In this document: one piece after another, positions 4,224-62,592 of the stretch
Numbering within the stretch: position 1 is the stretch's first letter
Layout: each line of letters opens with the position of its first letter
DNA from: a virus
Strand: one strand, 5' to 3'
IMG/VR virus record: IMGVR_UViG_3300029955_000024
DNA: 64,000 nt
Made by a program: the position numbers and the translations under genes
Notes under the pieces: generated by a model
Seen by the model: only the letters and a program-made list of their open reading frames with translations
Database searches by the model: none
Told to the model about the DNA's origin: nothing

Positions 4224-4363
4224 GATATCTCTCCTATGATAAGGATACTTTCTTTTCGAATGTTTGACGTATTTTCAACCGATCTTCTTCTTTCTAGTAT
4301 AGTTATCCTATACTAAATAGTGATAGGAAGTAAGAAATAACTTCCCCTAGGAGAATTCAAACT

Positions 4364-7115: not shown

Positions 7116-7131
7116 TGCCTTTCCCTTCTTC

Positions 7132-8472
7132 TTAGAAATCGCTACTACCACCGCCGCCGCTGTCGGAACTGCTGCTACTGTCAAAGCTGCTACTCCCGCC
7201 GCTGTCAAAGCTAGAACTGGAATCAGAACTACCCCAACTGGATGAGCCACCAGACTCGCTTTCACGATCTGGTTCTGGATCTGGAGCTCTGTACGTTGAT
7301 TCTTCTCGTCTTGGTTCTTCGCGACGAATCTCTTCCACACGTGGTCGATTGTTTATAGATTCGCCGATGAGAACACCAGTCAATAAATCATTGTTGGGAG
7401 TTGATGTCGGTGTTGGTTCATAAGTCGGTCTTTGTTCTATGTTATGGTGCTGGTGATGATGCCTAACTTGGTTGTATCCAGTGGTATCATTTACATCGGC
7501 AGTGTCAATGGGGGGTCCTTGTTCAGCCGGCTGTTCCGTTGCCATTGGGCTCTGTACATATTTGTGTGCTGAACGTAGAGACTCGAACTTATCGATGAGG
7601 ATTCGATATTCTTTGGTAATGGCTTGATAACCATCTTCTGTCATACTTTGTTTGGGGTCCATCGAGTCTGAGTTCTCCATATTGGAAAACTCTTCCATAT
7701 ACGTATCAAACATATCTTGAATGGATTTCTCTGGTGGATCACTCTGGAACGCTGATTTGAGGGTAAGAACTAGCGCAATACATTGATTCTTTGTAACTTG
7801 AGCTAACCTCTTCGCTTTTGCTTTGGCATCTCTTATTTCTGCCCAACGGGTGCAAGCGATATACCCTGCGGCAATAATGAAGATTAAGAACCCCAATCCA
7901 AGACACCATAGTAGTACAGTCCATAAACCTTTATAGTCCGTTGCTTGGACATTGGTTGTGTTCTGGACTGGGTGTAGAGCTTCATCTTTGGAAGCCGCTA
8001 ATCGAAGTGAGAATTGTTCGATACCAGTAGACATGCCAAGTGCATAGTTACCGTCTTTGAATCTTGGGATCATATAGGACGTCATGATCCGGTTCCAATT
8101 TCCGTCTAGTGCGGAATGCCAAGCGGAACCATACATTATTCCTACTTTATGATTCCCGGCTAACATAAAAACAATGAGTGTACTTTTACGTCCACCGCTG
8201 CCACTTTCCCAAGAGGCACATTGGTTCTCCATCTGTTTTTCTGTGATATCGAGGTTGGTGCTATACCCGACTGTCCTTATTCGGACATCAGCGCCTTGTT
8301 GAACCAACCTGTTCGCAGCGGTTTCTACTGTTGTAATACCTTTTCCAAACAGATTTGCTTGGTCAATGACAATGTTGTCACACAATAGAGATTGAGCCAT
8401 GACCCAACCTGACGTTGAAAACACCATCATCATAACCAACAACGTATACATTGTCAGCTTTGAACTTTTCAT
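7132..8472 (-). CDS. TPM-domain (TLP18.3/Psb32/MOLO-1, YgcG-like) membrane protein
   Basis: Signal peptide (MKSSKLTMYTLLVMMMVFSTSGWVMA). TPM motifs 'VIDQANLF', 'LIVFMLAGNHKVGIMYGSAWHS', 'IPRFKDGNYALGMSTGIEQ'. One TM helix, then Gly/Ser-rich C-tail typical of YgcG. GGAGGTGGAG RBS before ATG at 8472. Confidence 0.8.
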   Translation of the reverse strand: MKSSKLTMYTLLVMMMVFSTSGWVMAQSLLCDNIVIDQANLFGKGITTVETAANRLVQQGADVRIRTVGYSTNLDITEKQMENQCASWESGSGGRKSTLIVFMLAGNHKVGIMYGSAWHSALDGNWNRIMTSYMIPRFKDGNYALGMSTGIEQFSLRLAASKDEALHPVQNTTNVQATDYKGLWTVLLWCLGLGFLIFIIAAGYIACTRWAEIRDAKAKAKRLAQVTKNQCIALVLTLKSAFQSDPPEKSIQDMFDTYMEEFSNMENSDSMDPKQSMTEDGYQAITKEYRILIDKFESLRSAHKYVQSPMATEQPAEQGPPIDTADVNDTTGYNQVRHHHQHHNIEQRPTYEPTPTSTPNNDLLTGVLIGESINNRPRVEEIRREEPRREESTYRAPDPEPDRESESGGSSSWGSSDSSSSFDSGGSSSFDSSSSSDSGGGGSSDF

Positions 8473-8524
8473 ACACTCCACCTCCAAGTGGATCGGGAGG
8501 GTTGTTACACCCTCCCTTTACTAG

Positions 8525-10636: not shown

Positions 10637-12148
10637 TTACACGTCTTTTAGGACGGTGAATGAATCCTTTCGTTTCCTTCTATGACAATTTGTACACATT
10701 ATGAACTCTTTTGTATCATTTTTACAATTGTATTCTTCCCTGATAGTGGTTTTTACCATTCCATGAGGATAATTTATCTCATTACTGTTTTTATCCTTCA
10801 TCCTAACCCCAGTAGTGAACATCATAGTTCCTTTACATTTGGGGCACTTTGCTGCTATACGGATAACCTTGGATTGGTCGGAGAAGAATCCAGTTTTCAG
10901 AAGTCTATTGACATGTTTATACCAAACTTCACAGATTGCTTTCTTAATTGAATCTTTACCATAACTAGGGTTCTCTAGTTGATAGTCAAAAGCACGCTCC
11001 AACATTCTTTTATATTCATTACTGGGGGTGAATCCCCACTCGGTGAGATCGTCGCCAGTAACCAATGGTTTGGGGAATCCAAGAGTCTTAGCAGCAGTTA
11101 TATACCCTATGGTATTCTCCATATTTATAGAGATGATCTTAGCATTAACTAGAATCCATAGTAATTCTATAGCTCTGTTTATATTTGGCTTGTTGGCAAG
11201 CTTCCTTCTTTCACATAGTGAAGTAAGCCTATTAGACCTAAGATCAATTACTATTTGCACCATCTCTGAGATTGTATTTCTGTCTTCGTTAGAGAATTTG
11301 AGATATTTTAATACATCCCCAATATTCCAATATATACCAGTTGTATACAAAAGACAACACCATGCTAAGATTGGATCTTTAACTTGTCCAATCTTGTCGA
11401 AATTGACAGTTTGATCTACTATATTAAAAAGGGAATTTGGTTGTTGCTCATAGATTTTGGTGTATAAATTAGTTCTCTGAAGACAGAACAAAGCGTCACC
11501 GACGTGTTCCCCCGTTATGAGCTTTGTCATTTCGTCTCTAACACGTTCTCGCGAAACCCTAATCATCAAATTTGCATTATTACGAATTGCTCGTAATGTC
11601 TCAAATTCTATCTGAAACCCAAGTTGTGACACGAATCTAACAGCTCTTAACATTCGAAGAGGATCCTCTTGGAAACGAATGTTAGGGTCACCAATACAAC
11701 CAATCCTTCGTATTGATATATCATATTTACCACCAACATAATCAATAACTTCCATTGACTCTGGGTTCATCAATATCCCATTCATCCTAAAATCTCTACG
11801 ACCAGCGTCAATACATTCTTGATCAGTAAATATAACACTATCCGGTCTACGAAGGTCTGAATACTCAGTAGAATCACTTCTCAATGTAGCTACTTCTATG
11901 GAGTGATCTACACCATCTATATCAACAAGGACTTTTACAACTCCGAATTCTACTCCAATTGGAATATTGTGGGGAAATAGATCCATTACTTCATTGGGTT
12001 TAGCTGAAGTACATATATCAAAGTCTTTCGGTTCCTTGTTCATAAGAAGGTTTCTAACACACCTACCTACAAGGAAGACTTTGAAGTTATTTTGCTTTAA
12101 CGTCTTAGCTACTTTCCTAGCAGCTTCTAAACTACTTATCTCTGGCAT
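10637..12148 (-). CDS. cca: CCA-adding tRNA nucleotidyltransferase / poly(A) polymerase family, with C-terminal Zn-ribbon extension
   Basis: Head-domain motifs 'GRCVRNLLMNKEPKDFDI' (GGxVRDxLL..DxD), 'RRDFRMNGILMNP' (RRDFTIN), 'EDPLRMLRAVRF'. C-terminal CPKCKG...CTNCH. ATG at 12148 with AAGGA RBS; the track's 12163 start is TTG. Confidence 0.85.
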   Translation of the reverse strand: MPEISSLEAARKVAKTLKQNNFKVFLVGRCVRNLLMNKEPKDFDICTSAKPNEVMDLFPHNIPIGVEFGVVKVLVDIDGVDHSIEVATLRSDSTEYSDLRRPDSVIFTDQECIDAGRRDFRMNGILMNPESMEVIDYVGGKYDISIRRIGCIGDPNIRFQEDPLRMLRAVRFVSQLGFQIEFETLRAIRNNANLMIRVSRERVRDEMTKLITGEHVGDALFCLQRTNLYTKIYEQQPNSLFNIVDQTVNFDKIGQVKDPILAWCCLLYTTGIYWNIGDVLKYLKFSNEDRNTISEMVQIVIDLRSNRLTSLCERRKLANKPNINRAIELLWILVNAKIISINMENTIGYITAAKTLGFPKPLVTGDDLTEWGFTPSNEYKRMLERAFDYQLENPSYGKDSIKKAICEVWYKHVNRLLKTGFFSDQSKVIRIAAKCPKCKGTMMFTTGVRMKDKNSNEINYPHGMVKTTIREEYNCKNDTKEFIMCTNCHRRKRKDSFTVLKDV

Positions 12149-12273
12149 ATATTCCTTGTTCAATCTTATCCCAAGTACTCAGGACTAAAAGGGGGTAGTG
12201 TAAGTTATAAAGTAGTAAAGTACACTACCCTTCGTATTTGTCTACTTCTGACCACCAAACCATCATGGCTTGT

Positions 12274-17322: not shown

Positions 17323-18576
17323 TCATTTTAAGATACCTTTGAAGGACTCAACTGACATTCTGTCCTCGAACCTTGGTCCAAACGAGATTGTGTTGATAGT
17401 CGGTTCCAACAAATTCTTTAGAACAGACAAGTAAGTGCTTAGACTCGGGGGTTGTATAAACAAACCCTTCTCTGAGTCGATTATCTTCAGATAGTCTGTC
17501 CACCTGTCCAAATGGGACAAAGCTATTTCATCTACGCCTTTACAAATCTTAATGGACTTATTGACAAGCCCAATGTCCAAGTGTCCCACCCGAAACTCCC
17601 CTTGATACTCGCCTTTCTGGTTATGATTTTCTGGCAGTAAACCAGTTAATCTCATATCCTCGGTTGGGAATGGACCCACTCCGTGACGAGTGGCGTAGGT
17701 TCTTATACAGCCAATTCTGACTCTGTTACCAATGAACCCAGAAATGTTGAGCAAATCATCAGCATTCCTGAAAGTTGTGTTGGTCCATGAGTTATACGGA
17801 TAGGTCCCATACCACTCATCTAACATTACTCCTTGTGCCCCCTCGAACACAGATGCAGTGGATTTTGATAGCAAATCAGAAAGGAACTCTTGTGGCTTTA
17901 CCTGAGCGTTCCATTTGCTATATATCCGACTGTGCCATTCAGACCAGTCTTCATTACTATCTACTATGATGTCGTAGTCCTTTTTCCACTGGTCCACTGG
18001 TATCTTTTCCAATGTCGGAAGCAGCTCTTTCAGCTTGGCGAGGTACACCTTGTGAAGGAAGCTCAATTTGCTACGTGTTACCTCTTCTGATTCTATGTCT
18101 TTAGCAAATAGGACGTTGTTCCCATATTCAATGGAATCACTACGAGTTTGTCCTATTCCTTGTCCACAGCTACCGTGTCTGTTCTTCCCTCTGGCAATTT
18201 CTCTCAACCTTCCAAAAGCTATTTGGAAGGGAGTGACTACCAAGCAATCCCCATCAACAAATGTTCTGTCCCATATATCAGTTATCCCAAGGGACATTAG
18301 ATGAGCTGCTTCTCTCATCATGTAGAATGGATTGACCAATGTAAACTTGGACAAGTAAGTCTTCACATTGGGTTGTAGCATCCCACTACCAAACTGTTGG
18401 AAGGTATGGCTTCTCGATAATTCAACAACGTTATGTGCAGCTTGTGGCCCACCGTTGTATCGAACTATCAAATCAGCTTTGTGAGTACGGGTTAGATACT
18501 CTACGTGGGCTCCTTTTGCGCAATCGCCCCATAGCATCCCAGCAACGAGATATGCTATACCCATTAGTACCTCCAT
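17323..18576 (-). CDS. adenylosuccinate synthetase family protein (divergent PurA/PurZ-like)
   Basis: 'WGDCAKGAHV' (P-loop GDEGKGK), 'GGPQAAHN', 'GSCGQGIGQTR', 'FEGAQGVMLDEWYGTYPY', 'TRHGVGPFPTE' parallel PurA motifs. The TGRRRR region is diverged. Confidence 0.75.
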   Translation of the reverse strand: MEVLMGIAYLVAGMLWGDCAKGAHVEYLTRTHKADLIVRYNGGPQAAHNVVELSRSHTFQQFGSGMLQPNVKTYLSKFTLVNPFYMMREAAHLMSLGITDIWDRTFVDGDCLVVTPFQIAFGRLREIARGKNRHGSCGQGIGQTRSDSIEYGNNVLFAKDIESEEVTRSKLSFLHKVYLAKLKELLPTLEKIPVDQWKKDYDIIVDSNEDWSEWHSRIYSKWNAQVKPQEFLSDLLSKSTASVFEGAQGVMLDEWYGTYPYNSWTNTTFRNADDLLNISGFIGNRVRIGCIRTYATRHGVGPFPTEDMRLTGLLPENHNQKGEYQGEFRVGHLDIGLVNKSIKICKGVDEIALSHLDRWTDYLKIIDSEKGLFIQPPSLSTYLSVLKNLLEPTINTISFGPRFEDRMSVESFKGILK

Positions 18577-23656: not shown

Positions 23657-24358
23657 TTACTTACCTCTTTCCATACGCCAAAATTCCTGTGGTAAGTCTT
23701 CTTCATTGACTCGGACAAATTGCTTATCACGATTTACATACTTTACAATAGGGCAAACACTATCAATGTGAGCTCTTACTACACACAATTGTTCAGCGTC
23801 ACAAGAGTCTAACTGTCCAACTTCGCTGGCTTCTTTCATAAATGGTTGATCTTCTATACCCGTGGAGACGAATGGGTGTTCTTTCCACCAAGACTTCAGA
23901 TACATTTGACTTGTTCCACAAGCATAAAACTCGCTTGGTGGATGGACAAATAGATCATGGTAGAACTTAAAGCATTCCTCGTTATCTGTGTCAAAGAACA
24001 GGATGTTATGCCAACCTGTTACAGCTTTGCCTGTCTGAGCCAGTCTATCAACTTGAGCCTGAATACGATTGTCTGCGAACCAATCATCACAGTCCCAAGT
24101 AACACAGATTTCACCGGTTGCATGTAGCGTTCCTAAGTTGCGTAAGGCCCCCACAGGCCGCTTTTCACATTGTATATAAACAATCCTTGGGTCATTGATA
24201 GGAAGAAGATGTTGAATCTTCTTATCGTTAGGGTTGTTATCGACTACAATGAGTTCTCGGTTCTCATAGGTCTGGTTTAGGAAACATTGAATTGCTATTT
24301 TTGCAATGTCCCCATAGTAAGCAGGCATTACACAAGAAACTTTTAACATGATTGACAT
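23657..24358 (-). CDS. family-2 glycosyltransferase (GT-A fold)
   Basis: 'VSCVMPAYY', 'IVVDNNPND', DxD motif 'DCDDW'. Confidence 0.7.
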   Translation of the reverse strand: MSIMLKVSCVMPAYYGDIAKIAIQCFLNQTYENRELIVVDNNPNDKKIQHLLPINDPRIVYIQCEKRPVGALRNLGTLHATGEICVTWDCDDWFADNRIQAQVDRLAQTGKAVTGWHNILFFDTDNEECFKFYHDLFVHPPSEFYACGTSQMYLKSWWKEHPFVSTGIEDQPFMKEASEVGQLDSCDAEQLCVVRAHIDSVCPIVKYVNRDKQFVRVNEEDLPQEFWRMERGK

Positions 24359-35025: not shown

Positions 35026-35162
35026 GAGCCAGCTCCTTTCCTATACTAATGATGAAGACAAATTGTTGGTACGCTAAGTACCAACAATTTAATCTCCATC
35101 CGTATTGGATGGTCTAACAGACAACAAAACATCCCCGTAGGATTGCTCCTACGGGGAGTCTA

Positions 35163-40939: not shown

Positions 40940-41110
40940 CCAAGAGCTACTAGTTATATCCTGTTAATACCAATAGATAATACCAATAACACTAGGATAG
41001 AGATAACCCTGTTAATCCTGATAACACTTTAACAGTGTAACACTTTAACAGTAACAGTGTAACCCTGTTAATACTTAACTCTGATAACCCTGTTAATACT
41101 AGGTCTCTCC
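40940..41110. repeat. AT-rich tandem and dispersed direct repeats (CCTGTTAATAC x4-5; 16-bp GTAACACTTTAACAGT x2)
   Basis: Read directly from sequence; no ORFs. Confidence 0.55.
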
Positions 41111-41553
41111 ATCCTAATACACCGATATCATCTCGTGTGTAAAGACTTTAAGGTTTGTGGTGGTATATTCACACCACTAATCCCAGCTACTCACAGCTGT
41201 AAGCTGTTGTAATTGTTGATGTTGCTTCACAAGTACACTGGTCTTGGGCCCGTAGCATGTACCGGAAGATAGGCCCTCACGGGACGCTACCGACTCTCAT
41301 CGGGGTGAGCGAGACTCACCTACTATACAAGCTTGGACACTTGTATAGTTTCGAATTATCATCTATTCACTAGATATTGGACAATCTAGCTACTGTTTAT
41401 CCTATACTATATAATAGTAAGGGGACAAAAGAATCGCCCCTACAGGTAGACAGCAAGGAAGCATCCCTACTGAACACCGACTACGCCTAACAGACGGCTC
41501 ATACTATTATGGTAGTACCTATGGATCGGTACAATATGACCTCTTTGTCTCTT

Positions 41554-44500
41554 TTATCCCACCTCATCAGGATTAGGTTCTTCGAATGCCTCATAATTCT
41601 TCTGAGGCAACAAAGACTCGTGTGATTCTCTCAGAATCACCATTCCATCTTCCATTGTGAAGCCACCGAACTCTATCCCCTCGTCCTCTAGCCTTACAGG
41701 GATAGTTCCAATAGCTTCCATAGTGCTTAACCGATACACAATACCAGCCTCCTTGATCACAACATCAACCTTAGCTTCGCCAAGGTCATAAGCAAACTCC
41801 TCGTCCAAATCCACTGGTACTACAAGCCCAGTTATTGGACGCAGCTTACGAGTCTTGATATCCATATACTTGATATCCCGACTCGCCTGAATAATCGCAT
41901 TACCCATGCGCTTAGTCCACAACATACCATCTGGGAAGCTCTTTCGCTTCCCCATCTCCTCTCCCTCAACAACATACTGAGCATCTGCGTAGATGGTGTG
42001 ATACAGATAGCAGAGCAGCTCTACAGCCATCTGCTTAACAGTGTCATCATCAAACTGTGCCAGATACTCAGCACAATCATTCTCTACCTTCTTATACGCT
42101 TCGTTAAGACCCTCTCTGGTCATTGGATTACCAGCGCCAAGGATAGCTTTCCAGCCACCTCTCCACACCTGTATATAACCAGGCGCATCTTCACGCTTCC
42201 GACCGGGATTGGAACCGAGATAGACAGCGATGTCCGGGCTATGCCCACCCATCTCAAACACAAATGCTTCATCGGCAGGAGCTACTGATATCCACTCACG
42301 CAGCTTCAGACGATCTATCAACACATCACGTTTATGTGTTAAGTCTTTCAGACTCTTACACATAAGCGAGTCATAAATGTGATAATCAGCCTTAGCTACC
42401 TTAGTGGTGGGGATTCTAAGGGTATCCTTCCCACTAATACGCTTACCCATAGTAGCAATATATGGATAGATCAGAGTCCCTTCCAATCCAATGTTCTCAA
42501 CAGGTTCTCTACCTTCCTGTAAGCCACTATGGAACTGACGTACAGCATCGCTAACGTTACCAAGTTGAACCAAGATGTTTGCATCCAGAACAACGCCATC
42601 AATGACATGTTCCAGATTAGTTTCAAACTTCCTCATCTGATAAAGAGGTCTCATCACAAACCACTCACGGGTTGCTTCGAGGTCAGCAATCTTAGCAAGG
42701 TTACCAAACCTCTTAGCTTCAGCGATTTCAGCATCGAGCTGTTCAAACATATATGCCCGATCCGCTGCATTGGACAACCTATTGTCAATCATATTTGCAT
42801 TAACAACAGGTCCAATTCCAGCACCGCTCCTCTGCTTCCTATCAATCTGATAAGCAAAGTGCCGATTGTTATACCATTCCTTCACGCCGCGACCGGGGAT
42901 TTTATAACCTTCAGCTTCTGCTTCTTCATCAAACTGACGACGAAGCACAGCTCCTGACTTCTTGATCTTAGCAGTTTCTGGATACGGGTTATCGTTCAAT
43001 TCCTTGAACTTGTTAACCCAGAATTCATCAAATACTACGATGAAGCGATCATCCAGATCACCACCACCTAATCTGGCTAACACTTTGTTACAGCCAGCGC
43101 CGAGAATGATAATACCTTTCCCAGCGAACCTAGCATAACGCTGATGGTGGATATTCTTGAGAATCACGAATGCATTCTGATTCTCATTTGGTTGTCTATA
43201 ACAGGCAACCAAAATACCAGCAGGGATGTCCATCATACAGCACTCATCTTTACCAATGAGCTCATCCTCAATTGGTAACAGATTCCCTTCCGTATCATGC
43301 ATATACGGGTCATGGATACAATATCCACTAACAGCTACCTTATCCAATGGGATACGTCCACGCTCCATTTGCATGACACGATACATCATGAAGTTGTTAA
43401 CCCTACGACCCAATCCCGGGTACTTAAGAGCAGACCATCCATTGATGACCGCTTCTCTCAGCACCCAAGCATCCCAATCAATCATTGAGATCCCATCATT
43501 GTAGTAATGCTCATCATCACGTACACTGTTGATATACTTAACCAACAGCTTCGTGATTTCCTTGTTATCCATCGTCTTGTTCCAATAATCCAGACGGAAC
43601 AGCTGAGCTTGATAATCAATCATGCCCGGACGCTCAAAGCGGAAGTTATCCCAGCTTTGCATATCACTGAACGGCATGATCTTCTTCAGCTTACCAAAAC
43701 AGCCGAAGTAGAACCGCTCATTCTTAATCATAGTCTTGGACCCATACACTACGAAGTCATACTCCAAATCCTCCTTATAGACGAAGTTACCCTTCGGCAT
43801 ACCTACATACCTCTCACCAATAGTGCACTGCCATGCATCTCCAATACGTGGATGCTTGCTAAGTCCAACAGACTTTGCACCATGTTCTCCTACCAAGCCG
43901 CCACCATCCAACCGAGCAGCGTCATCATCTGTCAGTCCATCGATGCTATTAAACTTCACGGTAATGATGGCACCGTTATCCAAACGATACACACCAATAC
44001 CAGCGACAACATCGAACTTAACCGGTTTACCTAACGCATGCACCCAAGTTGGTGCCATCTCACGGTTTAAATACTTACCCGCTTTCAGGCATTTCTCCAA
44101 ATCATTGAGCTCAATCCAGATCCCAACACTTCTCAAATCCACTAAATTTGTCATGGCATCAGGAACGAGATAAGCAGTAGCCCTGTCATCTCTCTGATAA
44201 CCAAACAAACACTTATAGTGGATTCCCTCGTATTGATACCCACTGTTCATAACTCGCTCTGCTACCGCAGAGTCATCAGTTACAAACTCTATGTAGGTAC
44301 AGTCTAATGCGTCTTCCAACAGCCATGGAACTTCCGCATACGGCCCATAAGCTCTGAAGAACTTAGGATCATCGTCAAGTTTTGACCCAAACTTAACTTT
44401 ATTACGACGATGAGCCTCTGTATACGGAGTCCGAGTAACAAGCTTCTTGTTACTCTTCATCCATTCAACAACAGCGATCTTCTTTACTCCTCCATCATCC

Positions 44501-45339
44501 ATCTTTACTACCTCCTTTACAACATCCTTCTTAACCGGTTCAGTAGGAACCGGAGGATTCAATTTAGTCCAGAGCTGCTCAGGGCTAATACGCACCATAG
44601 GTGCATTAACCCGAAGGCAATAACGCCATCTGTTGTTAACAGACTCATACATCACACACCAACCACTCGTTAGATACCAAACAGTATCTAACGCATTAGG
44701 TTGGAGTGCTCCCTTAACCTTCTCATTCAAGAAGGCAAATAGTCTCTCCTTAACAGGTACCTCAATAACCGGTACCTTCTCAACAACAGGTTCAATCCGA
44801 GGCTCACCAAGCTTGGTAAATGCCTCATCCACCACGGTATCAGAGACATATTGGTCGCCAAGCAGTTTCTTTACAATCACATCCTGAGATACCTCGTTCA
44901 ATTGCTTATCAGCAATAGAACGCATACCCCAGCGATTCGCATCAATGTTATGAGCGACAAACGTTGTGCCAATGTCCCAACTCTGGAACCCCGGCATAGA
45001 CAAAGAAGGCTTACCCACTTCCTTATTTAGGTAATCCAACAAATTGATTACCTTAGGAGTTTCAGCCTTCTTCTCCACAACTGGCTCAGCCGGCTGAGAT
45101 ACAGGTACCTTCACCAACGCCTTCTCAGCTTCCAATAGAAGTGTTACCTTAGTCACATTGGACCGGATCCACTTCTTAGCCTCCTCATTCCTAACCGCCC
45201 AGATATCGGTATTTTCATAGAACATCACCGACAAACCACCGATGACAAACAAAGTCTTGTTACCATCCTGTTTGTCCGCAGAAGCACCCATAGCAGCAAA
45301 CAACGCAACCAACGTATTAGAATCCATAACACACTCCAT
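41554..45339 (-). CDS. 1261-aa protein, candidate non-canonical single-subunit RNA polymerase (YonO / cellular RdRP-like two-barrel) - tentative
   Basis: 'LGGGDLDDRFIVVFDEF' resembles the (S)GGDLDGD catalytic loop of RdRP/YonO-type polymerases. No DNA Pol A/B motifs and no Walker A were found. Confidence 0.35.
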   Translation of the reverse strand: MECVMDSNTLVALFAAMGASADKQDGNKTLFVIGGLSVMFYENTDIWAVRNEEAKKWIRSNVTKVTLLLEAEKALVKVPVSQPAEPVVEKKAETPKVINLLDYLNKEVGKPSLSMPGFQSWDIGTTFVAHNIDANRWGMRSIADKQLNEVSQDVIVKKLLGDQYVSDTVVDEAFTKLGEPRIEPVVEKVPVIEVPVKERLFAFLNEKVKGALQPNALDTVWYLTSGWCVMYESVNNRWRYCLRVNAPMVRISPEQLWTKLNPPVPTEPVKKDVVKEVVKMDDGGVKKIAVVEWMKSNKKLVTRTPYTEAHRRNKVKFGSKLDDDPKFFRAYGPYAEVPWLLEDALDCTYIEFVTDDSAVAERVMNSGYQYEGIHYKCLFGYQRDDRATAYLVPDAMTNLVDLRSVGIWIELNDLEKCLKAGKYLNREMAPTWVHALGKPVKFDVVAGIGVYRLDNGAIITVKFNSIDGLTDDDAARLDGGGLVGEHGAKSVGLSKHPRIGDAWQCTIGERYVGMPKGNFVYKEDLEYDFVVYGSKTMIKNERFYFGCFGKLKKIMPFSDMQSWDNFRFERPGMIDYQAQLFRLDYWNKTMDNKEITKLLVKYINSVRDDEHYYNDGISMIDWDAWVLREAVINGWSALKYPGLGRRVNNFMMYRVMQMERGRIPLDKVAVSGYCIHDPYMHDTEGNLLPIEDELIGKDECCMMDIPAGILVACYRQPNENQNAFVILKNIHHQRYARFAGKGIIILGAGCNKVLARLGGGDLDDRFIVVFDEFWVNKFKELNDNPYPETAKIKKSGAVLRRQFDEEAEAEGYKIPGRGVKEWYNNRHFAYQIDRKQRSGAGIGPVVNANMIDNRLSNAADRAYMFEQLDAEIAEAKRFGNLAKIADLEATREWFVMRPLYQMRKFETNLEHVIDGVVLDANILVQLGNVSDAVRQFHSGLQEGREPVENIGLEGTLIYPYIATMGKRISGKDTLRIPTTKVAKADYHIYDSLMCKSLKDLTHKRDVLIDRLKLREWISVAPADEAFVFEMGGHSPDIAVYLGSNPGRKREDAPGYIQVWRGGWKAILGAGNPMTREGLNEAYKKVENDCAEYLAQFDDDTVKQMAVELLCYLYHTIYADAQYVVEGEEMGKRKSFPDGMLWTKRMGNAIIQASRDIKYMDIKTRKLRPITGLVVPVDLDEEFAYDLGEAKVDVVIKEAGIVYRLSTMEAIGTIPVRLEDEGIEFGGFTMEDGMVILRESHESLLPQKNYEAFEEPNPDEVG

Positions 45340-46415: not shown

Positions 46416-46534
46416 ATCACAGTTGCATACGCACCATAACGTGGGAGCTCAACAGCGGCGAGCATATAATAATACACACTCGCCGCCAAAATGGTTACCA
46501 CCACACCAAAGAGCGAATGGATAAACCTATTCAT
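46346..46534 (-). CDS. small membrane protein (62 aa), translationally coupled to an upstream 43-aa ORF
   Basis: Its ATG overlaps the stop of an unlisted 43-aa ORF (about 46529..46660, GGAGG RBS) in an ATGAATAG arrangement. Confidence 0.4.
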   Translation of the reverse strand: MNRFIHSLFGVVVTILAASVYYYMLAAVELPRYGAYATVMCEFVVVLTIGWTTYTIHISEEI

Positions 46535-46758
46535 TGGCTACCTTAATTAATTCCAATATCGTCTCCAAAGCCTTGTCTTCCAACCCCTTGAGACGGGCAT
46601 CTTCCGCCTTGAGGCGGGCTTCATCTACCAAATTGTCGATTATCATCTCCAAAGACATATACTTCCTCCTAGAACATCCCCTAAAGCAGTTATGTTCTAT
46701 CCCAGATACGGAGGGACTAACCCCGTATCAAGGGAGAATATAACTACTGTTGAACATA

Positions 46759-47061
46759 TTACCTAACTACAGACGTATCAATAGTCTTGGTATACCCCCT
46801 CACAGCAGCAGCCAATGCCTGCTTCTTGGTCATAATACGTGTGTTACCCATATACGTATTGAAGTAATGACGCACAGTCTGTTCTGGTATGGTACCGAAC
46901 GACACTGACATCAACTCCGCCTGAAGCTCTGCAAACAACTGTTTGCGACCTTCTTCCCTAAGTGCCAACACAATGCTCAGAGTAGATGGAACAACCACCT
47001 GCTTCTGCTTATTGATGTTAATGGTACGAGCGGTGGCGAGCTTAGACCCAAATACGGTCAT
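46759..47061 (-). CDS. hypothetical protein (start at second Met of MYM)
   Basis: AAGGAG sits 6 nt before the ATG at 47061; leader shared with 47192..47407. Confidence 0.45.
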   Translation of the reverse strand: MTVFGSKLATARTININKQKQVVVPSTLSIVLALREEGRKQLFAELQAELMSVSFGTIPEQTVRHYFNTYMGNTRIMTKKQALAAAVRGYTKTIDTSVVR

Positions 47062-47191
47062 ATACATCTCCTTGTGAGCTATACAAGCTCCTTTGATAAC
47101 AGACATTACATAGCCTGCATCCTTCCATACACATAATACTTAGGTGTACAGAAGGATACAGGCCCTCCCTAAGGAGGACCTATATACATAA

Positions 47192-47407
47192 CTACACATG
47201 CTGACAATGTCCACCATGTAAACCCTTTGCAGGATATTCACATGGTGAATACGCCTCTATCCCCTCATTAATACATTTAGGACAGCGATTGTCTGTATAG
47301 AGCGCCTTTGGGTAATAGCAATCACAAGTTACGCATTCATACATGTTTTCACAGCGATTAAGCTCTACCAATGCGTCCCAAACAACAGCTTTATCAAGCT
47401 TAGCCAT
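47192..47407 (-). CDS. Cys-rich small protein (zinc-ribbon-like)
   Basis: CxxC...CxxC; same conserved leader/RBS as 46759..47061. Confidence 0.45.
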   Translation of the reverse strand: MAKLDKAVVWDALVELNRCENMYECVTCDCYYPKALYTDNRCPKCINEGIEAYSPCEYPAKGLHGGHCQHV

Positions 47408-47537
47408 ATACATCTCCTTGTGAGTCATACAGACTCCTTAGTGCAAGGTATTACCTAACCTGCACTCTTAAACGTATGTGTTACACAGGTATACGCTTAA
47501 GAGCACAGGCCCTCCCACTTAAGGGAGGACCTATATC

Positions 47538-47825
47538 CTATTTCATGTTGTTCGGATCCAGCATACGTTCCTGAGCGAAATCGCAAAACTCCCTGTATTC
47601 AATACAGGTAATCTCACCATCTCTCTCACCAAGAAGATGTTCAATAGCGTGTTGTAAGAACACATATACACCCGGAGCTAGCACTTGGGTGTATACTATT
47701 TCAGCTAATAACTTCGTAGCGGGAATAGCTGCAATGGCATCCTGTCTAGCTTGCCATACGGCAAGCTCCTTCTTCCAGTGATTGTGAGACATACTGCCTC
47801 CTTGTAGCAACCGAAAGCTACACAT
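47538..47825 (-). CDS. hypothetical protein (95 aa)
   Basis: ORF track. Confidence 0.4.
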   Translation of the reverse strand: MCSFRLLQGGSMSHNHWKKELAVWQARQDAIAAIPATKLLAEIVYTQVLAPGVYVFLQHAIEHLLGERDGEITCIEYREFCDFAQERMLDPNNMK

Positions 47826-47906
47826 TACGTGGGACCCATCTTGTAAATGGGTCTTGTCGGTTAACTATGTGGTTATCCCACATAGCTACTCCCGATTAAT
47901 ACCGAA

Positions 47907-48107
47907 CTATAACCACGTCACTGGGTTTTCAGCAAAGACGTGTCTCACGTCTTTACCTTTTAACCAACACGCGTGGTCCAGCTCCGCCGCCTCGTTGGGT
48001 GACCTCCACCGAGTACAGAGAATTACTGGGGTTCCGCTGGAAAGGTCTACTACATTGTATAAATAAGACCGTTCCGACAGATTGGCGAAGAACGACGAGT
48101 TATTCAT
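47907..48107 (-). CDS. hypothetical protein (66 aa)
   Basis: ORF track. Confidence 0.3.
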   Translation of the reverse strand: MNNSSFFANLSERSYLYNVVDLSSGTPVILCTRWRSPNEAAELDHACWLKGKDVRHVFAENPVTWL

Positions 48108-48255
48108 TTACTTCCTCCTTCTAGAATAAGGCTCTAGATAACCAACCTCACTACTAATAGAGTCCTCTTAGAAAGGACTCTTGTGGGTTATCACGAGACT
48201 ATCCTCGTGATCTTCCCCTGTTAAAGGGGAGTAGTTTCCTACTCCCCCATGTTTA

Positions 48256-48621: not shown

Positions 48622-48738
48622 CTATACTATCAATCCATTACACTTTCTGGGTGGCTATAAGACTTTATCCAGTACGTCTATACTAAATATATTTATAGAT
48701 CCTTTGGATATTTCTAGTTCTGATGGTATAATAAAGAC
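48622..48738. promoter_or_regulatory. divergent promoter region at strand-switch point
   Basis: 117-bp AT-rich gap between divergent genes. On plus: TTGGAT-17 nt-TATAAT ending 6 nt before ATG 48739 (possibly leaderless). Confidence 0.45.
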
Positions 48739-55850: not shown

Positions 55851-57878
55851 ATGAGTGAGAAAGTAGATATAACTTTAGATAGTTTCTTATCTGAGGTTAA
55901 TAAAAGAAATACAAACAAGGATGGAAGCGAGAGAGACCCTAGATTGCTCGAACGCTTCCAGAACCCTATATGTCAGGATTGTCACGCCCGATATAAAGAG
56001 AAGTACCCGGGTATTCCGTTCAAGATTAAGTGTAATGGTGTTTATGATGATCCCGATTATGTAATTATAAGGGAGAAGTGGAAAGAAACTTATCCAGATG
56101 AGGAACCACCAGATTTAGAGACTATTAAAGAAATTACTGATCCGTCTTACTGGGCGAGAAAACATATCTATAGAAAAGATCATAGAGGTGACTTGGTTCC
56201 TTTCGTTCCTCGTTGGTATCAGGAATGGATTCTTCGTTGTACAGCAATGCAGAAAGTTGATAGATGTGGTAGGGGCACCGGGAAAACTACTGTAGGTGTA
56301 ATTGAAGAATTACATAAAGCTATCACTAGAAAGAATTATGATATCCTTGTTGTAAGCCCTGCTGATTCACAGTCAGAAAAATGGTTCACTGAGATTCTAG
56401 TGCAAGTAGAAAACTCTCCATCATTGAGAGAAGCTCTAGCCCAGAAGAAGCAACAGCCTTATAAAATATTTAGATTTAATAATGGGTCTACTATCTCCAT
56501 CTTCACTGCGGGTTCCGCTTCAGGTCGTGGTGCTGATTCTATTCGTTCTCAATCGCCTAGACGTGTTCGTTGCGAGGAGCAGGACTATCTAGCAGAAAAA
56601 GATTGGGGAGCGATAGAACCTCTTCTAAATAGATATTCAGATTCTGAGTTCCATGGAGCTTCAACCCCTACTGGTTCACGTAATAAGTTCTGGAACATGT
56701 GTACCAAATATCCTAGATATAAAGAATTCTATTTCCCAGTTACTGTTCTTCCAGACTGGAGTCCAGAGAAAGAAGAACAGTGTATTTTAGAAGCTAAAAC
56801 CATGGATAGATATCGCCATGAATATTTAGCTGAATTTGGTGACCCCACACAAGGTGTATTCAAAGGCATCTTCGTAGATAGAGCAAAAGGGGTATATGAA
56901 GACCCACAACATCCACACACTAAAGGATATGATACTTGTCAGTATGACCCAAACCTAAGGTACTTTATGGGCGTGGATTGGAATGGTGAAGGTACTGGTA
57001 CCCGTATACGTGTATTGTCTTATGACACAATTAGTAGAATAAGACGTTGTGTAACAGCACATACTGTAGATGAAGCTACTTGGACAGTTAATAAGTCTAT
57101 TGATGCTATTCAGATATTAAATAAGAAGTGGCATTGTGAAAAGGTATTTATAGACAGGGGTTATGGTCAGGCACAAGACGAAATGATTCGTATGCGAGGA
57201 GTAACAGCTCCCCCAACTGATGCAGATACCCGTAGACTTCGAGATATAATAGCCATAGACTTCGGTGCTAAATTAATAACTAATAAACTTGTTCCATTAA
57301 GAGATCCTAACTCTAAGTACTTACCCGAAGACAAGAATGAACTAGAACGCCCAACTAAGCCGTTTATGGTTGAAGGCGCTGTAATGGCTATAGAAACAGG
57401 TCTTGTTACATTCTGGCAAGGGGACTCTTTATTGGATGAACAATTAAGAGCTTACAGAGTAAAGAACTGGTCAGCACACGGGTATCCGTCTTCTTATGAA
57501 GTAGAAGGAGACTGTGGAGACCACGATTTAGACGCGTTCATGCTGGCACTCCTAGCAATTGAAATGACGTATGGTATGTTCAAGACTCCAGAAGAATTAA
57601 AGAAGTGGACTCAAATTGTATATGTTGGAAACTTCGGAGCTAATATGGGATTCGGTAAGTCCTCTTCTGATCCAATGAATAAGAAGAGAGAAGACGCAGG
57701 CATCCCTAACAGAACACAACCAACAACTACTTCTCCGAAAGATGAATATAGATTAATGTATCTAATGAAGAGTGGGTCTTTAATTGCCCCCGCTAGAAGT
57801 AGTTCTGGTAGAATGCAAACAGGATCGAGAACAAGCATATTTAGAAAATCCCCAGGTAATAAAGATAGGAATTATTAA
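55851..57878 (+). CDS. terL: terminase large subunit
   Basis: Walker A 'CGRGTGKTT', ATPase then RNaseH-like nuclease region ('FMGVDWNGEG', 'IDRGYG', 'DCGDHDLDAF'); 675 aa. Confidence 0.85.
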   Translation: MSEKVDITLDSFLSEVNKRNTNKDGSERDPRLLERFQNPICQDCHARYKEKYPGIPFKIKCNGVYDDPDYVIIREKWKETYPDEEPPDLETIKEITDPSYWARKHIYRKDHRGDLVPFVPRWYQEWILRCTAMQKVDRCGRGTGKTTVGVIEELHKAITRKNYDILVVSPADSQSEKWFTEILVQVENSPSLREALAQKKQQPYKIFRFNNGSTISIFTAGSASGRGADSIRSQSPRRVRCEEQDYLAEKDWGAIEPLLNRYSDSEFHGASTPTGSRNKFWNMCTKYPRYKEFYFPVTVLPDWSPEKEEQCILEAKTMDRYRHEYLAEFGDPTQGVFKGIFVDRAKGVYEDPQHPHTKGYDTCQYDPNLRYFMGVDWNGEGTGTRIRVLSYDTISRIRRCVTAHTVDEATWTVNKSIDAIQILNKKWHCEKVFIDRGYGQAQDEMIRMRGVTAPPTDADTRRLRDIIAIDFGAKLITNKLVPLRDPNSKYLPEDKNELERPTKPFMVEGAVMAIETGLVTFWQGDSLLDEQLRAYRVKNWSAHGYPSSYEVEGDCGDHDLDAFMLALLAIEMTYGMFKTPEELKKWTQIVYVGNFGANMGFGKSSSDPMNKKREDAGIPNRTQPTTTSPKDEYRLMYLMKSGSLIAPARSSSGRMQTGSRTSIFRKSPGNKDRNY

Positions 57879-60291: not shown

Positions 60292-62592
60292 ATGAGTAAT
60301 AGTAAAACAGCAAATACATTAGATATTGAAAAAATAGGACGTCAACAGCGTTTAGAAAATTGGTTAGAAAGAGACCAATCTAAATCTATTTCGTCCTTCA
60401 AACGCCGTATAAACGGAAAGACATTAGAGCCCTTTGTGGAAGGTTTAGGAGATAGGTCCAAGATGAAGATGCCTCTTCCTTGGAGACCTATGTCTACCCG
60501 TTCTGTAGAAGATGAAAAAGCAGCAGATGGTGGAAGGGCTATTGACCCTTCATCAGCTTCTATTAAGCTAGCCAAGGCTAGTGATTATATGGGTACTTAT
60601 CATGGCCACAATGGAATCTTACGTCCAGAATATGACATGTTAGAACCATTCGTTATTGCTGATACCGAGGTATACGTCAAGCAAGCAATCGTTCGTAGAC
60701 AAGCTTTAATGTTCCGGAATGGGTTTGAATTAGTTAGTGACTTTGACAAGGATACACAACAAGGACAAAAGAATGTAGATTATATACAGGCTCGTTTTGA
60801 TGTAATGGAGTATGTGACAAATAGGGCCACAGAGATCTTTCTAAAAGACATTTTGTATAATCTTGAATTATGTTCTAATTGTTTTCTGCGGAAGATTCGT
60901 GATGAGAAAGCATCGCCCGGTGTAAAGCAAGATAATAATAATAAAAGAATTCCTGTTGCTGGGTATCAAATCATTCCAGCACATCAAATAATGCCTTATC
61001 TAAAGAGTGGTGTTATTATTAAGTGGCGCAGATACTTCGATACCGGTATGCCATTCGAAGACATCCCTCTTGAAGATATTATACATTTGAAGTGGGATGT
61101 TAAGCCAAGTCACATCTTTGGCACTCCACGTACAATTGGGGTTAGAGATGATATATTTGCGCTTCGCCGGTTGGAAGAGAACATAGAGCTCTTATTTATA
61201 AACCATCTATTTCCTTTATTCCATGTAAAAGTTGGTAATGAAAAAGCTCCGTGTACTTATACTTCAGACGGTAACTCAGAAATAGATCTAATCCGATATC
61301 AGATCGAAGCCATGCCAAAAGAGGGTATCTTCGTTACTGATGAAAGAGTTGAGATAGAAGCCGTTGGTGCTAGCGGGGAATCTCTTGATACTAAGGACAT
61401 CATTACCCATTTAAAGGGAAGGGTGTTTACAGGTCTAGGGGTATCCCCTTTAGACATGGGCGAAGGGGACTCGGCTAATAGAGCTACCGCTGATAATATC
61501 TCCCAGAATCTGAAAGATGCTATAAAAGCGGATCAGGAAACATTTGCCCATTTAATTCGTATCTGGATATTTAAAGAGTGGTTTCTAGAAGCTCCTTATT
61601 CATTGTCTGTTCAAAGAGCTGTGGCATCTACTCATCTAGCGTTCCATGAGATAGATTTGGATAACCTGATTAAAGAACAGAATCATATTATCCAGCTATA
61701 CACCAACCATCTTATTACCGAAACAGAAGCTCGTAAGAAGATACATAAGAAGCCTATGGATAACTCCATGCGTAAAGAAACCCATTACAAGCAGCACATC
61801 GTTGACTTGGTATGGGAAGAAGCTGAAGCTAAAGCTGATGCCCAGATTAAGATTACCGAAGCTCAAACTGAACAACAGAAGGCTTTACTTACCCATCAGA
61901 CTAAAGAAACAGAAAAGGGTGCTTCAACTCAAATGTCTCTATTAAAGGCCGAAGCCGAAGCAGAAGGAAAGAAAGCACAGGCCCAAGTAATAAAGGCGGA
62001 AGCTCAGCACAAAGTCTTGAAAGCTAAGACTGCCCATGCTATAGCTACTGGTGGTGGGAAGGCTGTGAAGAAAGCCACACCATCAGCTAAGACAACTAAG
62101 AATAAGAATATGCCTACTAACCAACATGGTACTAACCCCGGACCAACGAAGGCTAAAAGCTCTCTGGAATTCATGAAACTCCTAAAAGATAGGCTAACAG
62201 AGCTTCGATCTAACGTAATTAACCTTGAACAATGGTCAGTAGTATCAGCAAAAGTGATAGATGATTTAAATTTGGAATTTGAGGACTCCCAAACCATTGA
62301 TGACACAGAGAATTCCTATACTAATCAGATACGAACGGGATTAGATAGACTAAAGAATATAGTTGGACTAACCCACGACCCAGAAATCTTAAGTATCTTG
62401 TTAGACAGCTGGCTTGAATCAGAGGAATTAGAAGATGTCGAACACACAGCGGTGGAATCAGTTACCGGAAGGCTGGAGGACAGTGAAGCACCCAACAACG
62501 AGAGTGCCATTGGACCAAGCAATTCAGAACCCAGCGATAATCCCACGAGAGGGAAGACCAACAACGAAGACTCCCTTACCACAGTCGAATAG
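60292..62592 (+). CDS. portal protein (probable)
   Basis: 766 aa after terminase; AGGAA RBS; long C-terminal K/E/A coiled-coil and acidic tail as in podovirus portals. Confidence 0.6.
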   Translation: MSNSKTANTLDIEKIGRQQRLENWLERDQSKSISSFKRRINGKTLEPFVEGLGDRSKMKMPLPWRPMSTRSVEDEKAADGGRAIDPSSASIKLAKASDYMGTYHGHNGILRPEYDMLEPFVIADTEVYVKQAIVRRQALMFRNGFELVSDFDKDTQQGQKNVDYIQARFDVMEYVTNRATEIFLKDILYNLELCSNCFLRKIRDEKASPGVKQDNNNKRIPVAGYQIIPAHQIMPYLKSGVIIKWRRYFDTGMPFEDIPLEDIIHLKWDVKPSHIFGTPRTIGVRDDIFALRRLEENIELLFINHLFPLFHVKVGNEKAPCTYTSDGNSEIDLIRYQIEAMPKEGIFVTDERVEIEAVGASGESLDTKDIITHLKGRVFTGLGVSPLDMGEGDSANRATADNISQNLKDAIKADQETFAHLIRIWIFKEWFLEAPYSLSVQRAVASTHLAFHEIDLDNLIKEQNHIIQLYTNHLITETEARKKIHKKPMDNSMRKETHYKQHIVDLVWEEAEAKADAQIKITEAQTEQQKALLTHQTKETEKGASTQMSLLKAEAEAEGKKAQAQVIKAEAQHKVLKAKTAHAIATGGGKAVKKATPSAKTTKNKNMPTNQHGTNPGPTKAKSSLEFMKLLKDRLTELRSNVINLEQWSVVSAKVIDDLNLEFEDSQTIDDTENSYTNQIRTGLDRLKNIVGLTHDPEILSILLDSWLESEELEDVEHTAVESVTGRLEDSEAPNNESAIGPSNSEPSDNPTRGKTNNEDSLTTVE

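Follow-up and report, generated by a model that had tools for sequence, protein, structure and literature searches.

A phage homologue of single-subunit two-barrel RNA polymerases with a predicted DxDD catalytic loop

Does the largest gene of this phage DNA encode a polymerase and, if so, which nucleic acid would it read and which would it make? In the window, by which we mean the whole 64,000-nucleotide stretch analysed, an earlier note had singled out a 1261-residue protein with a GGGDLDD motif as a possible YonO/RdRP-like single-subunit RNA polymerase. The ORF is complete (1261 aa plus stop) and runs from ATG to stop at 41554..45339; it lies on the minus strand, a point on which that note was silent, as do all features of the gene given below. 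The string ARLGGGDLDDRFIVVFDEFW is indeed present in it, and it is the largest gene in the window, as had been claimed, the runner-up being the portal protein (766 aa). That no other polymerase is recognisable also held good: when about 35 of the 46 ORFs of at least 150 aa were scanned, there was no other match to a DNA or RNA polymerase family, a result that covers the 64 kb in view, the full genome being probably much larger. We consider it likely that the gene encodes a single-subunit two-barrel polymerase of the QDE-1/YonO/phage-RNAP clade, most plausibly an early, non-virion DNA-dependent RNA polymerase (RNAP).

The aspartate loop and its conserved surroundings

Because homologues begin level with M5, translation may really start at 45327 rather than at 45339. 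The first 290 residues (44470..45339) form a poorly conserved extension with Pro/Glu/Val/Lys-rich linkers, found only in the closest clade (P0001–P0003); most family members are 900–1050 aa long and do without it. No known domain was found in this extension with Pfam. The idea that it consists of a small domain repeated three times in tandem, prompted by a loose visual pattern, was rejected, since BLASTP gave no alignment and Pfam nothing. The remainder, aa 291–1261 (41557..44469), is the conserved polymerase core, on which the structural model and the fold searches were based.

The GGGDLDD motif occupies aa 758–764 (43048..43068), inside LGGGDLDDRFIVVFDEF (aa 757–773 of the 1261-aa protein), and contains a candidate metal-binding Asp triad, D761/D763/D764. 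In a 50-sequence family alignment each of the three aspartates is present in 50/50 sequences, and G759, P717, K516, K422 and R426 are also invariant. Given the invariance of D761, D763, D764 and G759, the motif is, on the reading of this alignment, no chance match. The family comprises 133 clusters at 50% identity, with divergence down to ~20% identity, and 103 of the 133 representatives have R-x-P and, after it, G-x-D-x-D-D. Of the 30 that lack the pattern, 25 are ≤512 aa long, mostly fragments short of the loop, and the five full-length exceptions keep RxP...DxDD with the preceding glycines substituted. The observation that the loop reads DxDD rather than DxDGD therefore extends from the window protein to the family: all members whose sequence extends over the catalytic loop read DxDD there, and none DxDGD. 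DxDD has one residue fewer than DxDGD, and profile alignments to QDE-1 and to YonO both need a one-residue gap. The superfamily signature for RNAPs is DxDxD/DxDGD (PMC2919709, PMC7824862, PMC10770324). The protein departs from it, its three invariant aspartates standing as D761-x-D763-D764; the triad has probably retained its function despite this departure from the signature letters.

N-terminal to the loop, R715-Q-P717 (43189..43197; R in 49/50, P in 50/50) is equivalent to R446/P448 of Rpb1, residues that are invariant in two-barrel RNAPs (PMC2919709). The R-x-P expected of a beta-prime-type barrel is thus present, and it aligns to the RSP of QDE-1 and YonO. In the superfamily, an Asp and a pair of basic residues come from the beta-type barrel (D837, K979 and K987 in Rpb2). 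A candidate fourth catalytic Asp is found in D478-G479 (43903..43908; D in 45/50, G in 50/50); its candidate counterpart is QDE-1 D709/Rpb2 D837, in the motif 'DGxG..S', by a QDE-1 sub-alignment that is not significant alone. The segment Q504-x-T506...K516-G517 (43789..43830) holds candidate product-binding basic residues. An R or K occupies position 504 in 35 of the 50 members, K516 is present in all 50, and the two are likened to Rpb2 K979/K987 and QDE-1 Q736/K743 via a non-significant sub-alignment; K535 (43735–43737), which follows K516, is conserved in 49/50. The roles of the QDE-1 and Rpb2 residues are taken from PMC9508822 and PMC2919709. D478, position 504, K516 and K535 all fall within the predicted first barrel. 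The invariance of D761, D763, D764, K516 and P717, and the presence of R715, K535 and D478 in at least 45 of 50 members, argue for an active enzyme.

Relationship to QDE-1, YonO and other two-barrel enzymes

When the family profile was compared with the PDB, the top match was QDE-1 (E 0.0019), aligned on YRQPNEN...GGDMD.D. Comparison of the family profile with YonO by hhalign gave an E-value of 9.3e-4 and a probability of 22% over 104 columns of the catalytic segment. These profile alignments, which place the family at the catalytic loops of both QDE-1 and YonO, together with the fold match described below, support the YonO/RdRP-like reading. The sequence links are nevertheless weak (E ~1e-3; hhalign probability 22%), which counts against our interpretation, as do the departure from DxDxD/DxDGD and the lack of a match between the window protein and any curated family. 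The Pfam RdRP family PF05183, which takes in cellular RdRPs and YonO-like proteins, was matched by 7 of 50 members at E ≤ 0.01, and P0004, which is 35% identical to the window protein, scored 25.0 bits against a gathering cut-off of 23.8. The window protein itself gave no match to PF05183 even at E ≤ 1, so that its link to this family is transitive only, the matches coming from its homologues.

The window protein found nothing in Pfam, PHROGs, NCBIfam or PDB sequences, nor by tblastn against 50,697 phage records. P0004 and P0042 gave no tblastn match among cultured phages, and PHROGs was matched by 0/50 family members. Within the reach of pattern and tblastn scans, no relatives were seen in two scans of IMG/VR or in 185,579 GTDB species genomes. 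As far as these scans reach, the family appears to be unannotated and confined to metagenomes.

The earlier note had proposed looking for two barrels in an AlphaFold model, and the prediction has them: a pair of domains of the double-psi beta-barrel (DPBB) type that together make up a single catalytic core, in a fold that as a whole resembles known members. A model built from three sequences had a pLDDT of 38; a usable one was obtained with the alignment from an exhaustive search of representatives. The best matches in both structure and sequence are QDE-1 and RDR2. A structural or tail protein, which that note had given as an example of a refuting outcome, was rejected, as there was no such fold match. 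The predicted first barrel (~aa 433–550, 43690..44043) is beta-subunit-like, corresponding to DPBB-B, or DPBB1 of QDE-1; its limits are approximate, being taken from the predicted strands of the model and from conserved columns. The second (~aa 669–770, 43030..43335) is beta-prime-like, corresponding to DPBB-A, or DPBB2 of QDE-1, and carries the catalytic loop. Beyond it, GIGPVVNANMID, where a long helix begins (42784..42819; G843 in 50/50, N847 in 48/50, D852 in 46/50), is a mere candidate for the bridge-helix region, and TNLEHVID (42598..42621; E910 in 47/50, I913 in 48/50, D914 in 50/50) is likewise no more than a candidate for a trigger-loop-like element, comparable to V1115/D1116 of QDE-1 (PMC9508822). 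The only PDB entries matched by a sub-profile of the two putative elements were designed helical proteins, none of them relevant.

Set beside its relatives, the protein is only ~11% identical to QDE-1/RDR2 (PF05183), which have a DxDGD loop where it has DxDD; QDE-1 has Q736 where most family members have R or K at position 504, and there is no sign here of the QDE-1 dimer or of its C-tail regulation. QDE-1 and RDR2 are cellular, whereas this protein belongs to a dsDNA phage, so that its template is probably DNA. It resembles YonO of the Bacillus prophage SPbeta in being phage-encoded, with both barrels in a single chain (~100 kDa in YonO), and the catalytic segments align (RSPHL...DNDGD in YonO, RQPNEN...GDLD-D here); the similarity is marginal (hhalign E 9e-4, probability 22%), and YonO has the canonical DxDGD in 839 aa, as against DxDD here in 1261 aa, of which 290 form the N-terminal extension. 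The non-virion RNAP P23-45 gp64 (P74-26 gp62) is much smaller, at ~590 aa for gp64, and both gp64 and the virion RNAP gp96 of P23-45 have DxDxD, unlike the DxDD found here; no sequence similarity of the window protein to gp64 or gp96 was detected.

Operon context and a candidate promoter element

The window derives from a tailed phage, as TerL and portal genes are present, and the nearest TerL relatives belong to phages of 176–235 kb, including 0305phi8-36, which carries a YonO-like enzyme (PMC2919709, PMC7824862). Genes for a divergent PurA/PurZ-like enzyme and for a glycosyltransferase lie in the window too. The polymerase gene closes a short leftward operon of small ORFs, from 48621 down to 41554, that is divergent from the TerL/portal block. 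Its place at the end of such an operon, close behind a strand switch, recurs in all related contigs that were examined. In the window and seven related contigs the gene lies 1.5–3.5 kb past a strand switch or the contig start, preceded by 4–9 small ORFs on the same strand, and in several of those contigs it is followed by a long non-coding gap. A terminator-like hairpin (41422..41440, minus strand), ~115 nt downstream of the polymerase stop codon, is probably where the operon ends. Rfam found two tRNAs only, and no known RNA in the 614-nt gap after the polymerase gene.

Just 3' of the hairpin lies TATATAGTATAG (41402..41413, minus strand), a candidate promoter or regulatory element. In four lineages the non-coding gap that lies downstream of the polymerase gene contains the 10-mer TATAGTATAG, and this recurrence makes it a candidate for the same role. 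K-mer enrichment in intergenic regions yielded TAGTATAG only. Within the window the TAGTATAG/TATAGTATAG pattern was not above shuffles (11-mer with ≤1 mismatch; 12-mer with ≤2), and the significance of the element comes from its conservation at the same position across phages rather than from counts within the window. The SPbeta map offers a parallel, with a non-coding stretch shortly downstream of yonO, after yonN, and a YonO-dependent start site upstream of yonK (PMC5467207); we liken that stretch to the 614-nt gap, with its conserved element, directly after the polymerase gene here. The element is also present at the head of the operon encoding the enzyme, where the divergent intergenic region (48622..48738) contains TAGTATAG twice on its minus strand, and its plus strand has a sigma-70-like site. 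This second location counts against our interpretation, because a purely non-virion polymerase would not need it.

A probable early transcriptase and its alternatives

We envisage that the host polymerase would make the enzyme early, from the first leftward operon, and that the enzyme would then transcribe later phage genes, possibly from the candidate element, without the host polymerase. Its active site would be formed by two double-psi beta-barrels within one chain. The second barrel would contribute R715-x-P717 and D761/D763/D764, with the triad holding the catalytic Mg2+ ions, and the first would contribute D478 and the basic residues at position 504, K516 and K535, holding the 3' end of the RNA and the phosphates of the NTP. 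With one residue fewer in DxDD than in DxDGD, the backbone position from which the third carboxylate contacts the metal must differ, and the invariant glycines just before the triad may permit this altered reach. That the template would be DNA and the product RNA is in keeping with YonO and with gp64 and gp96 of P23-45, which are biochemically characterised DNA-dependent RNAPs (PMC5467207, PMC10770324).

The protein might instead be packaged in the virion and injected with the DNA, like crAss-like gp66, P23-45 gp96 and N4 vRNAP, and transcribe the hairpin-rich early region, its own operon included. We regard this as unlikely: judged by gene position only, the gene sits in a leftward operon of small ORFs and not in the structural module. 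The gp66 of crAss-like phi14:2, whose PDB title is 'Virion-packaged DNA-dependent RNA polymerase', has 2166 residues, about twice the size of the present protein with its early-type operon. Unlikely too, to a similar degree, is that the DxDD family is a functionally distinct two-barrel branch and not simply a divergent YonO; the shortened loop could then reflect a different metal geometry or substrate, as in dNTP/primer synthesis or the transcription of chemically modified phage DNA, a possibility beside which the PurA/PurZ-like enzyme and the glycosyltransferase of the window may be set, and the enzyme could have its own compact promoter, for which TATAGTATAG is the candidate.

It is distinctly improbable that the protein is an RNA-dependent RNAP, or a dual DdRP/RdRP like QDE-1, rather than the phage mRNA polymerase, with antisense or double-stranded RNA, or extended RNA primers, as its products. 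QDE-1 and RDR2 are the closest matches in structure and sequence, and some members pass or approach the Pfam RdRP threshold; we know of no RdRP role in dsDNA tailed phages, which counts against such a function. QDE-1 itself has both activities (PMC9508822), but the characterised phage enzymes of the same fold are DNA-dependent (PMC5467207, PMC10770324), and the conserved early-operon position is that expected of an enzyme for transcription take-over. More improbable still is a use of the fold for DNA synthesis or priming, with the shortened DxDD loop denoting a different substrate. PolD is a two-barrel DNA polymerase in which DP2 acts with the exonuclease partner DP1. The PolD fold score is far below that of the RNAPs (5.3 versus 15.4), DP2 is not the closest fold match, and no DP1-like partner was seen adjoining the polymerase gene; the window is part of a genome of probably at least 150 kb, so replication genes may lie elsewhere. 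Finally, the altered DxDGD might mark a catalytically dead homologue, now structural or regulatory. We give this hardly any credence and reject it, because the three aspartates, R-x-P, K516 and D478 show little or no variation in a family that has drifted to ~20% identity, the pattern of a conserved active site.

The interpretation we prefer, an early non-virion DNA-dependent RNAP, would make this a known kind of enzyme with a DxDD variant of the catalytic loop, its ancient fold apparently shared with the RNA polymerases of cells. Single-subunit relatives of cellular RNA polymerase are few, and YonO, gp66, gp64 and gp96 have shaped ideas about the minimal core and the origin of transcription. 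To these is now added a family of 133 clusters, with a candidate catalytic triad of DxDD in the loop-covering members as against the published DxDxD/DxDGD. Activity of the enzyme would mean that one residue can be lost from the metal-binding loop, and that annotation rules based on 'DxDxD' need widening. A core of ~110 kDa, possibly with a short conserved promoter, could serve as an orthogonal expression tool. Should the family prove to be a distinct branch with a promoter of its own, nature would have furnished an exception to the DxDxD signature and, with it, an orthogonal transcription system of a single subunit that is new.

A metagenome family around the largest gene of the window

The earlier note had singled out the ORF at 41554–45339 as the largest gene of the window, and we confirmed it as real, running from 45339 down on the minus strand, and as the biggest ORF present. 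It opens with ATG and encodes 1261 aa; homologues begin at M5, and the true start may therefore be 45327. The string LGGGDLDDRFIVVFDEF, which contains the GGGDLDD motif (nt 43048–43068, minus strand), lies at aa 757–773.

Searches with this protein gave no significant match in Pfam, PHROGs or NCBIfam, among PDB chain sequences, or by tblastn against 50,697 deposited phage genomes. A word-indexed search of 5.8 billion proteins yielded just two relatives, at 47% and 38% identity, each a metagenome protein lacking annotation. Conservation among the three sequences begins near aa 300 and extends to the C-terminus; aa 1–290 are variable, with Pro/Glu/Val/Lys-rich linkers. A profile made from the 971 conserved aa of the core was searched exhaustively against 1.84 billion cluster representatives, and recovered 133 proteins at E ≤ 0.001, 107 of them at E ≤ 1e-10. 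Because members are mostly 900–1050 aa long, we regard the core as ancestral, and the extension at the N-terminus (44470–45339, minus strand) as specific to the clade of the window polymerase. Within the extension the linkers separate three W-rich segments; a search for a known domain found none, and internal repeats were unsupported by BLASTP. The extension may serve in promoter recognition, host-factor binding or packaging.

In all 10 clusters inspected, entries were unnamed or called 'hypothetical protein', came from JGI, Logan and ENA, and included none from NCBI or UniRef. The window polymerase is itself absent from the searched protein collection. No PHROG match was found among 50 family members, and two further members gave no tblastn match to cultured phages. 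Two scans of IMG/VR and one of 185,579 GTDB species genomes found no relatives; nine family loci were located in JGI metagenomes.

Fold, catalytic loop and links to known polymerases

A structural model built from three sequences was poor (pLDDT 38); AlphaFold2 with a 50-sequence alignment gave a mean pLDDT of 87.9 and a pTM of 0.87. The earlier note had proposed a YonO/RdRP-like single-subunit polymerase, to be abandoned if no double-psi barrel was predicted or if a structural protein or other enzyme was identified. Foldseek gave the opposite outcome. Against the PDB, 22 matches had E ≤ 0.001. QDE-1 or plant RDR2 accounted for 21 of these chains, with E 2e-13 to 3e-6 over about 900 alignment columns, and the last was gp64, the RNAP of a Thermus phage similar to P23-45. 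Weaker matches were to the largest subunits of RNAP II, I and III, and to generic double-psi barrels, for example in the N domain of p97, aspartate decarboxylase and formylmethanofuran dehydrogenase subunit D. In BFVD, the matches included proteins from uncultured phages, two of which carry the label 'RNA dependent RNA polymerase', as well as A7KVB1, RNAPs of the crAss-like type and a protein from Acinetobacter phage ME3.

Profile comparisons point the same way. The top match of the family profile among all PDB sequences was the RdRP QDE-1 (5fsw, E 0.0019), aligned as vvyRqPnen...(35 aa)...GGDmD.Dslvivf­Dpe with lvaRsPahf...GGDYDgDmawvcwDpd, so that a one-residue gap faces the QDE-1 Gly in the catalytic loop. 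The Pfam RdRP family PF05183 was matched individually by 7 of 50 members (best E 1.5e-10); a member 35% identical to the window polymerase (P0004) scored 25.0 bits over residues 326–494, exceeding the gathering threshold of 23.8 bits. With YonO, taken from the SPbeta record, hhalign gave E 9.3e-4 at a probability of 22%, pairing yRQPN with lRSPHL and GGgDmD-D with qfDNDGD. These sequence links are weak one by one; they are mutually consistent, each of them lying on the catalytic segment. We regard the reading of the ORF as a YonO/RdRP-like single-subunit polymerase as supported, its two-barrel fold and homology being highly probable. Judged by each family's criteria, the window polymerase falls outside PF05183 and probably outside the YonO family.

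Conservation was measured, in full-length numbering, on the 50-sequence alignment, in which identity to the window polymerase falls to about 20%. Invariant residues are K422, R426, G479, K516, Q561, P717, G759, D761, D763, D764, G843, D914 and D1137; K419, D478, G517, K535, D559, R662, P664, R715, N847, D852, E910 and I913 are nearly so. An R-x-P followed 25–80 residues on by G-x-D-x-D-D occurs in 103 of 133 family representatives. Of the 30 others, 25 are 512 aa or shorter, mostly fragments that stop short of the loop, and the five full-length exceptions keep RxP...DxDD with substituted glycines, so the motif noticed in the window is a family signature. The superfamily signature for RNAPs is given as DxDxD or DxDGD (PMC2919709, PMC7824862, PMC10770324); none of the 133 representatives has DxDGD at the catalytic loop. 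PolD, the DNA-polymerase member of the superfamily, retains two invariant Asp (PMC4996933). Among the papers listed by a full-text search of one library, none paired 'DxDD' with polymerase terms, which is not proof of novelty.

Two-barrel RNAPs share eight residues: the beta-prime-type barrel contributes three Asp, an Arg and a Pro, and the beta-type barrel an Asp and two Lys (PMC2919709). Their QDE-1 equivalents include D1007/D1009/D1011, D709 and K743, with Q736 replacing the first Lys (PMC9508822). R715, P717 and D761/D763/D764 are mapped by the significant portion of the QDE-1 and YonO alignments, and in the model lie at a strand end and in the loop preceding the last strand of the predicted second barrel. 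The candidate residues D478-G479 ('DGxG..S'), position 504, K516-G517 ('aKG') and K535 all lie in the predicted first barrel and follow the QDE-1 motif order, in a region where the alignment is not significant alone. Position 504 is basic (R or K) in 35 of the 50 aligned sequences; in the window clade it is Q, as in QDE-1. Motifs that may correspond to the bridge helix (GIGPVVN..D) and the trigger loop (TNLE..ID) show strong conservation, and sequence comparison tied neither to a known structure.

Genomic context and a candidate promoter

The window comes from a tailed phage, with a large terminase (TerL) at 55851–57878 (plus) and a portal at 60292–62592. The closest cultured relatives of TerL (23–29% identity), among them Moorella MTATph1, Bacillus 0305phi8-36, WH1 and Edson, and Acinetobacter ME3, are all phages of 176–235 kb, so the window probably belongs to the genome of a large or jumbo phage. 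Both ME3 and A7KVB1 recur among the BFVD matches of the polymerase, and a YonO-like enzyme has been reported in 0305phi8-36 (PMC2919709, PMC7824862). Also encoded are a DNA ligase, a 508-aa tRNA nucleotidyltransferase (CCA-adding enzyme; 10637–12163, minus), two tRNA-Met (CAT) genes (1359–1435 and 2620–2694, minus), a family-2 glycosyltransferase (23657–24358) and a PurA/PurZ-like enzyme of the adenylosuccinate-synthetase family (17323–18576, minus). The last matches PHROG 1211, labelled PurZ-type, at E 1e-61; its NCBIfam scores are 147 bits for PurA, where the cut-off is 402, and only 28 bits for PurZ; 2-aminoadenine DNA, if made, would bear on the template read by the polymerase. ORFs with PspA/IM30-family (6459–7340, minus) and TPM (7132–8487, minus) domains suggest membrane-stress-type functions unusual in a phage; they overlap, and the gene calls therefore need checking. 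On contigs of distant members, the strand opposite the polymerase operon carries glycosyltransferases, methyltransferases and a GIY-YIG endonuclease (contig L006, 934–3897 and 5044–5583; contig L008, 998–2463).

Genes are nearly all on the minus strand from 1 to 48.6 kb and on the plus strand from 48.7 kb onward. The first leftward run comprises ten small ORFs from 48621 and ends with the polymerase gene, which is followed by a terminator-like hairpin (41440–41422) within a 614-nt non-coding gap (40940–41553). The layout is the same in each related contig inspected that had sufficient sequence: 4–9 small same-strand ORFs precede the polymerase gene, which lies 1.5–3.5 kb past a strand switch or contig start, and in several a long non-coding gap follows (820 nt in L014; about 840 nt in the 130-kb contig of P0031, a family member). 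To judge from other RNAP genes of phages, this arrangement fits an early gene, presumably transcribed by the host polymerase.

In the gap 3' of the polymerase gene, the 10-mer TATAGTATAG is present on the coding strand in four lineages, and its 12-mer form TATATAGTATAG in three. The window copy (41402–41413, minus) is directly 3' of the hairpin; those on related contigs are at L001 5871–5882, L003 4929–4940 and L014 7144–7153, polymerase identities being 47% for L001, 45% for L014/L015 and 35% for L003/L016/L017. The core TAGTATAG recurs in the window at the head of the leftward operon (48678–48685 and 48622–48629) and at 35041–35048 and 4308–4315, always intergenic, on the minus strand and mostly right after a hairpin; L001 has it at its very start (6–13). 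By eye, neither the window copies nor those of L001 showed a TTGACA-like -35 upstream at proper spacing. Since counts inside the window are not above shuffles, the case for a candidate phage-specific promoter rests on conservation at the same position across phages. In SPbeta, a YonO-dependent start site lies upstream of yonK (PMC5467207), in a non-coding stretch that comes after yonO and yonN; the parallel with an element in the gap after the polymerase gene is suggestive only.

The 614-nt gap also holds direct repeats TATTAACAGGGTTATC (about four copies) and TGTTAAAGTGTTACAC (two copies) around 41000–41100, and a block common to L001, AGTGTCCAAG ... GA[TC]GAGAGTCGG. It has no Rfam match, and these sequences could be origin iterons, operator sites or an unannotated RNA. 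The repeated hairpins described in the earlier note lie in the spaces that separate the small early ORFs: every such intergenic stretch in 46416–48255 contains from one to four of high stability (MFE -32 to -59 kcal/mol over 81–148 nt), with recurring related stems such as GGTCCTCCC...GGGAGGGCC. They are possible terminators, processing sites or promoters.

Probable function of the enzyme

We consider it probable that the protein would act as an active, early-expressed, non-virion DNA-dependent RNA polymerase, with a two-metal site formed by D478 and D761/D763/D764. A virion RNAP, carried in the particle, is unlikely; if the conserved element is the promoter of the enzyme, the copy heading its own operon would favour this reading. 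RNA-templated synthesis, as by QDE-1, or a dual activity appears distinctly improbable. A role in DNA synthesis or priming seems slightly less probable still. Least credible is a dead enzyme: all three loop Asp are invariant across the family, which argues for a functional rather than a decayed DxDD loop.

The protein is best described as belonging to a new, metagenome-only family in the single-subunit clade, with the DxDD catalytic loop as its hallmark. Two-barrel RNAPs of a single subunit are already an established kind in phages; the interest of this family lies in the family-wide change in the signature loop and in the lack of functional annotation.
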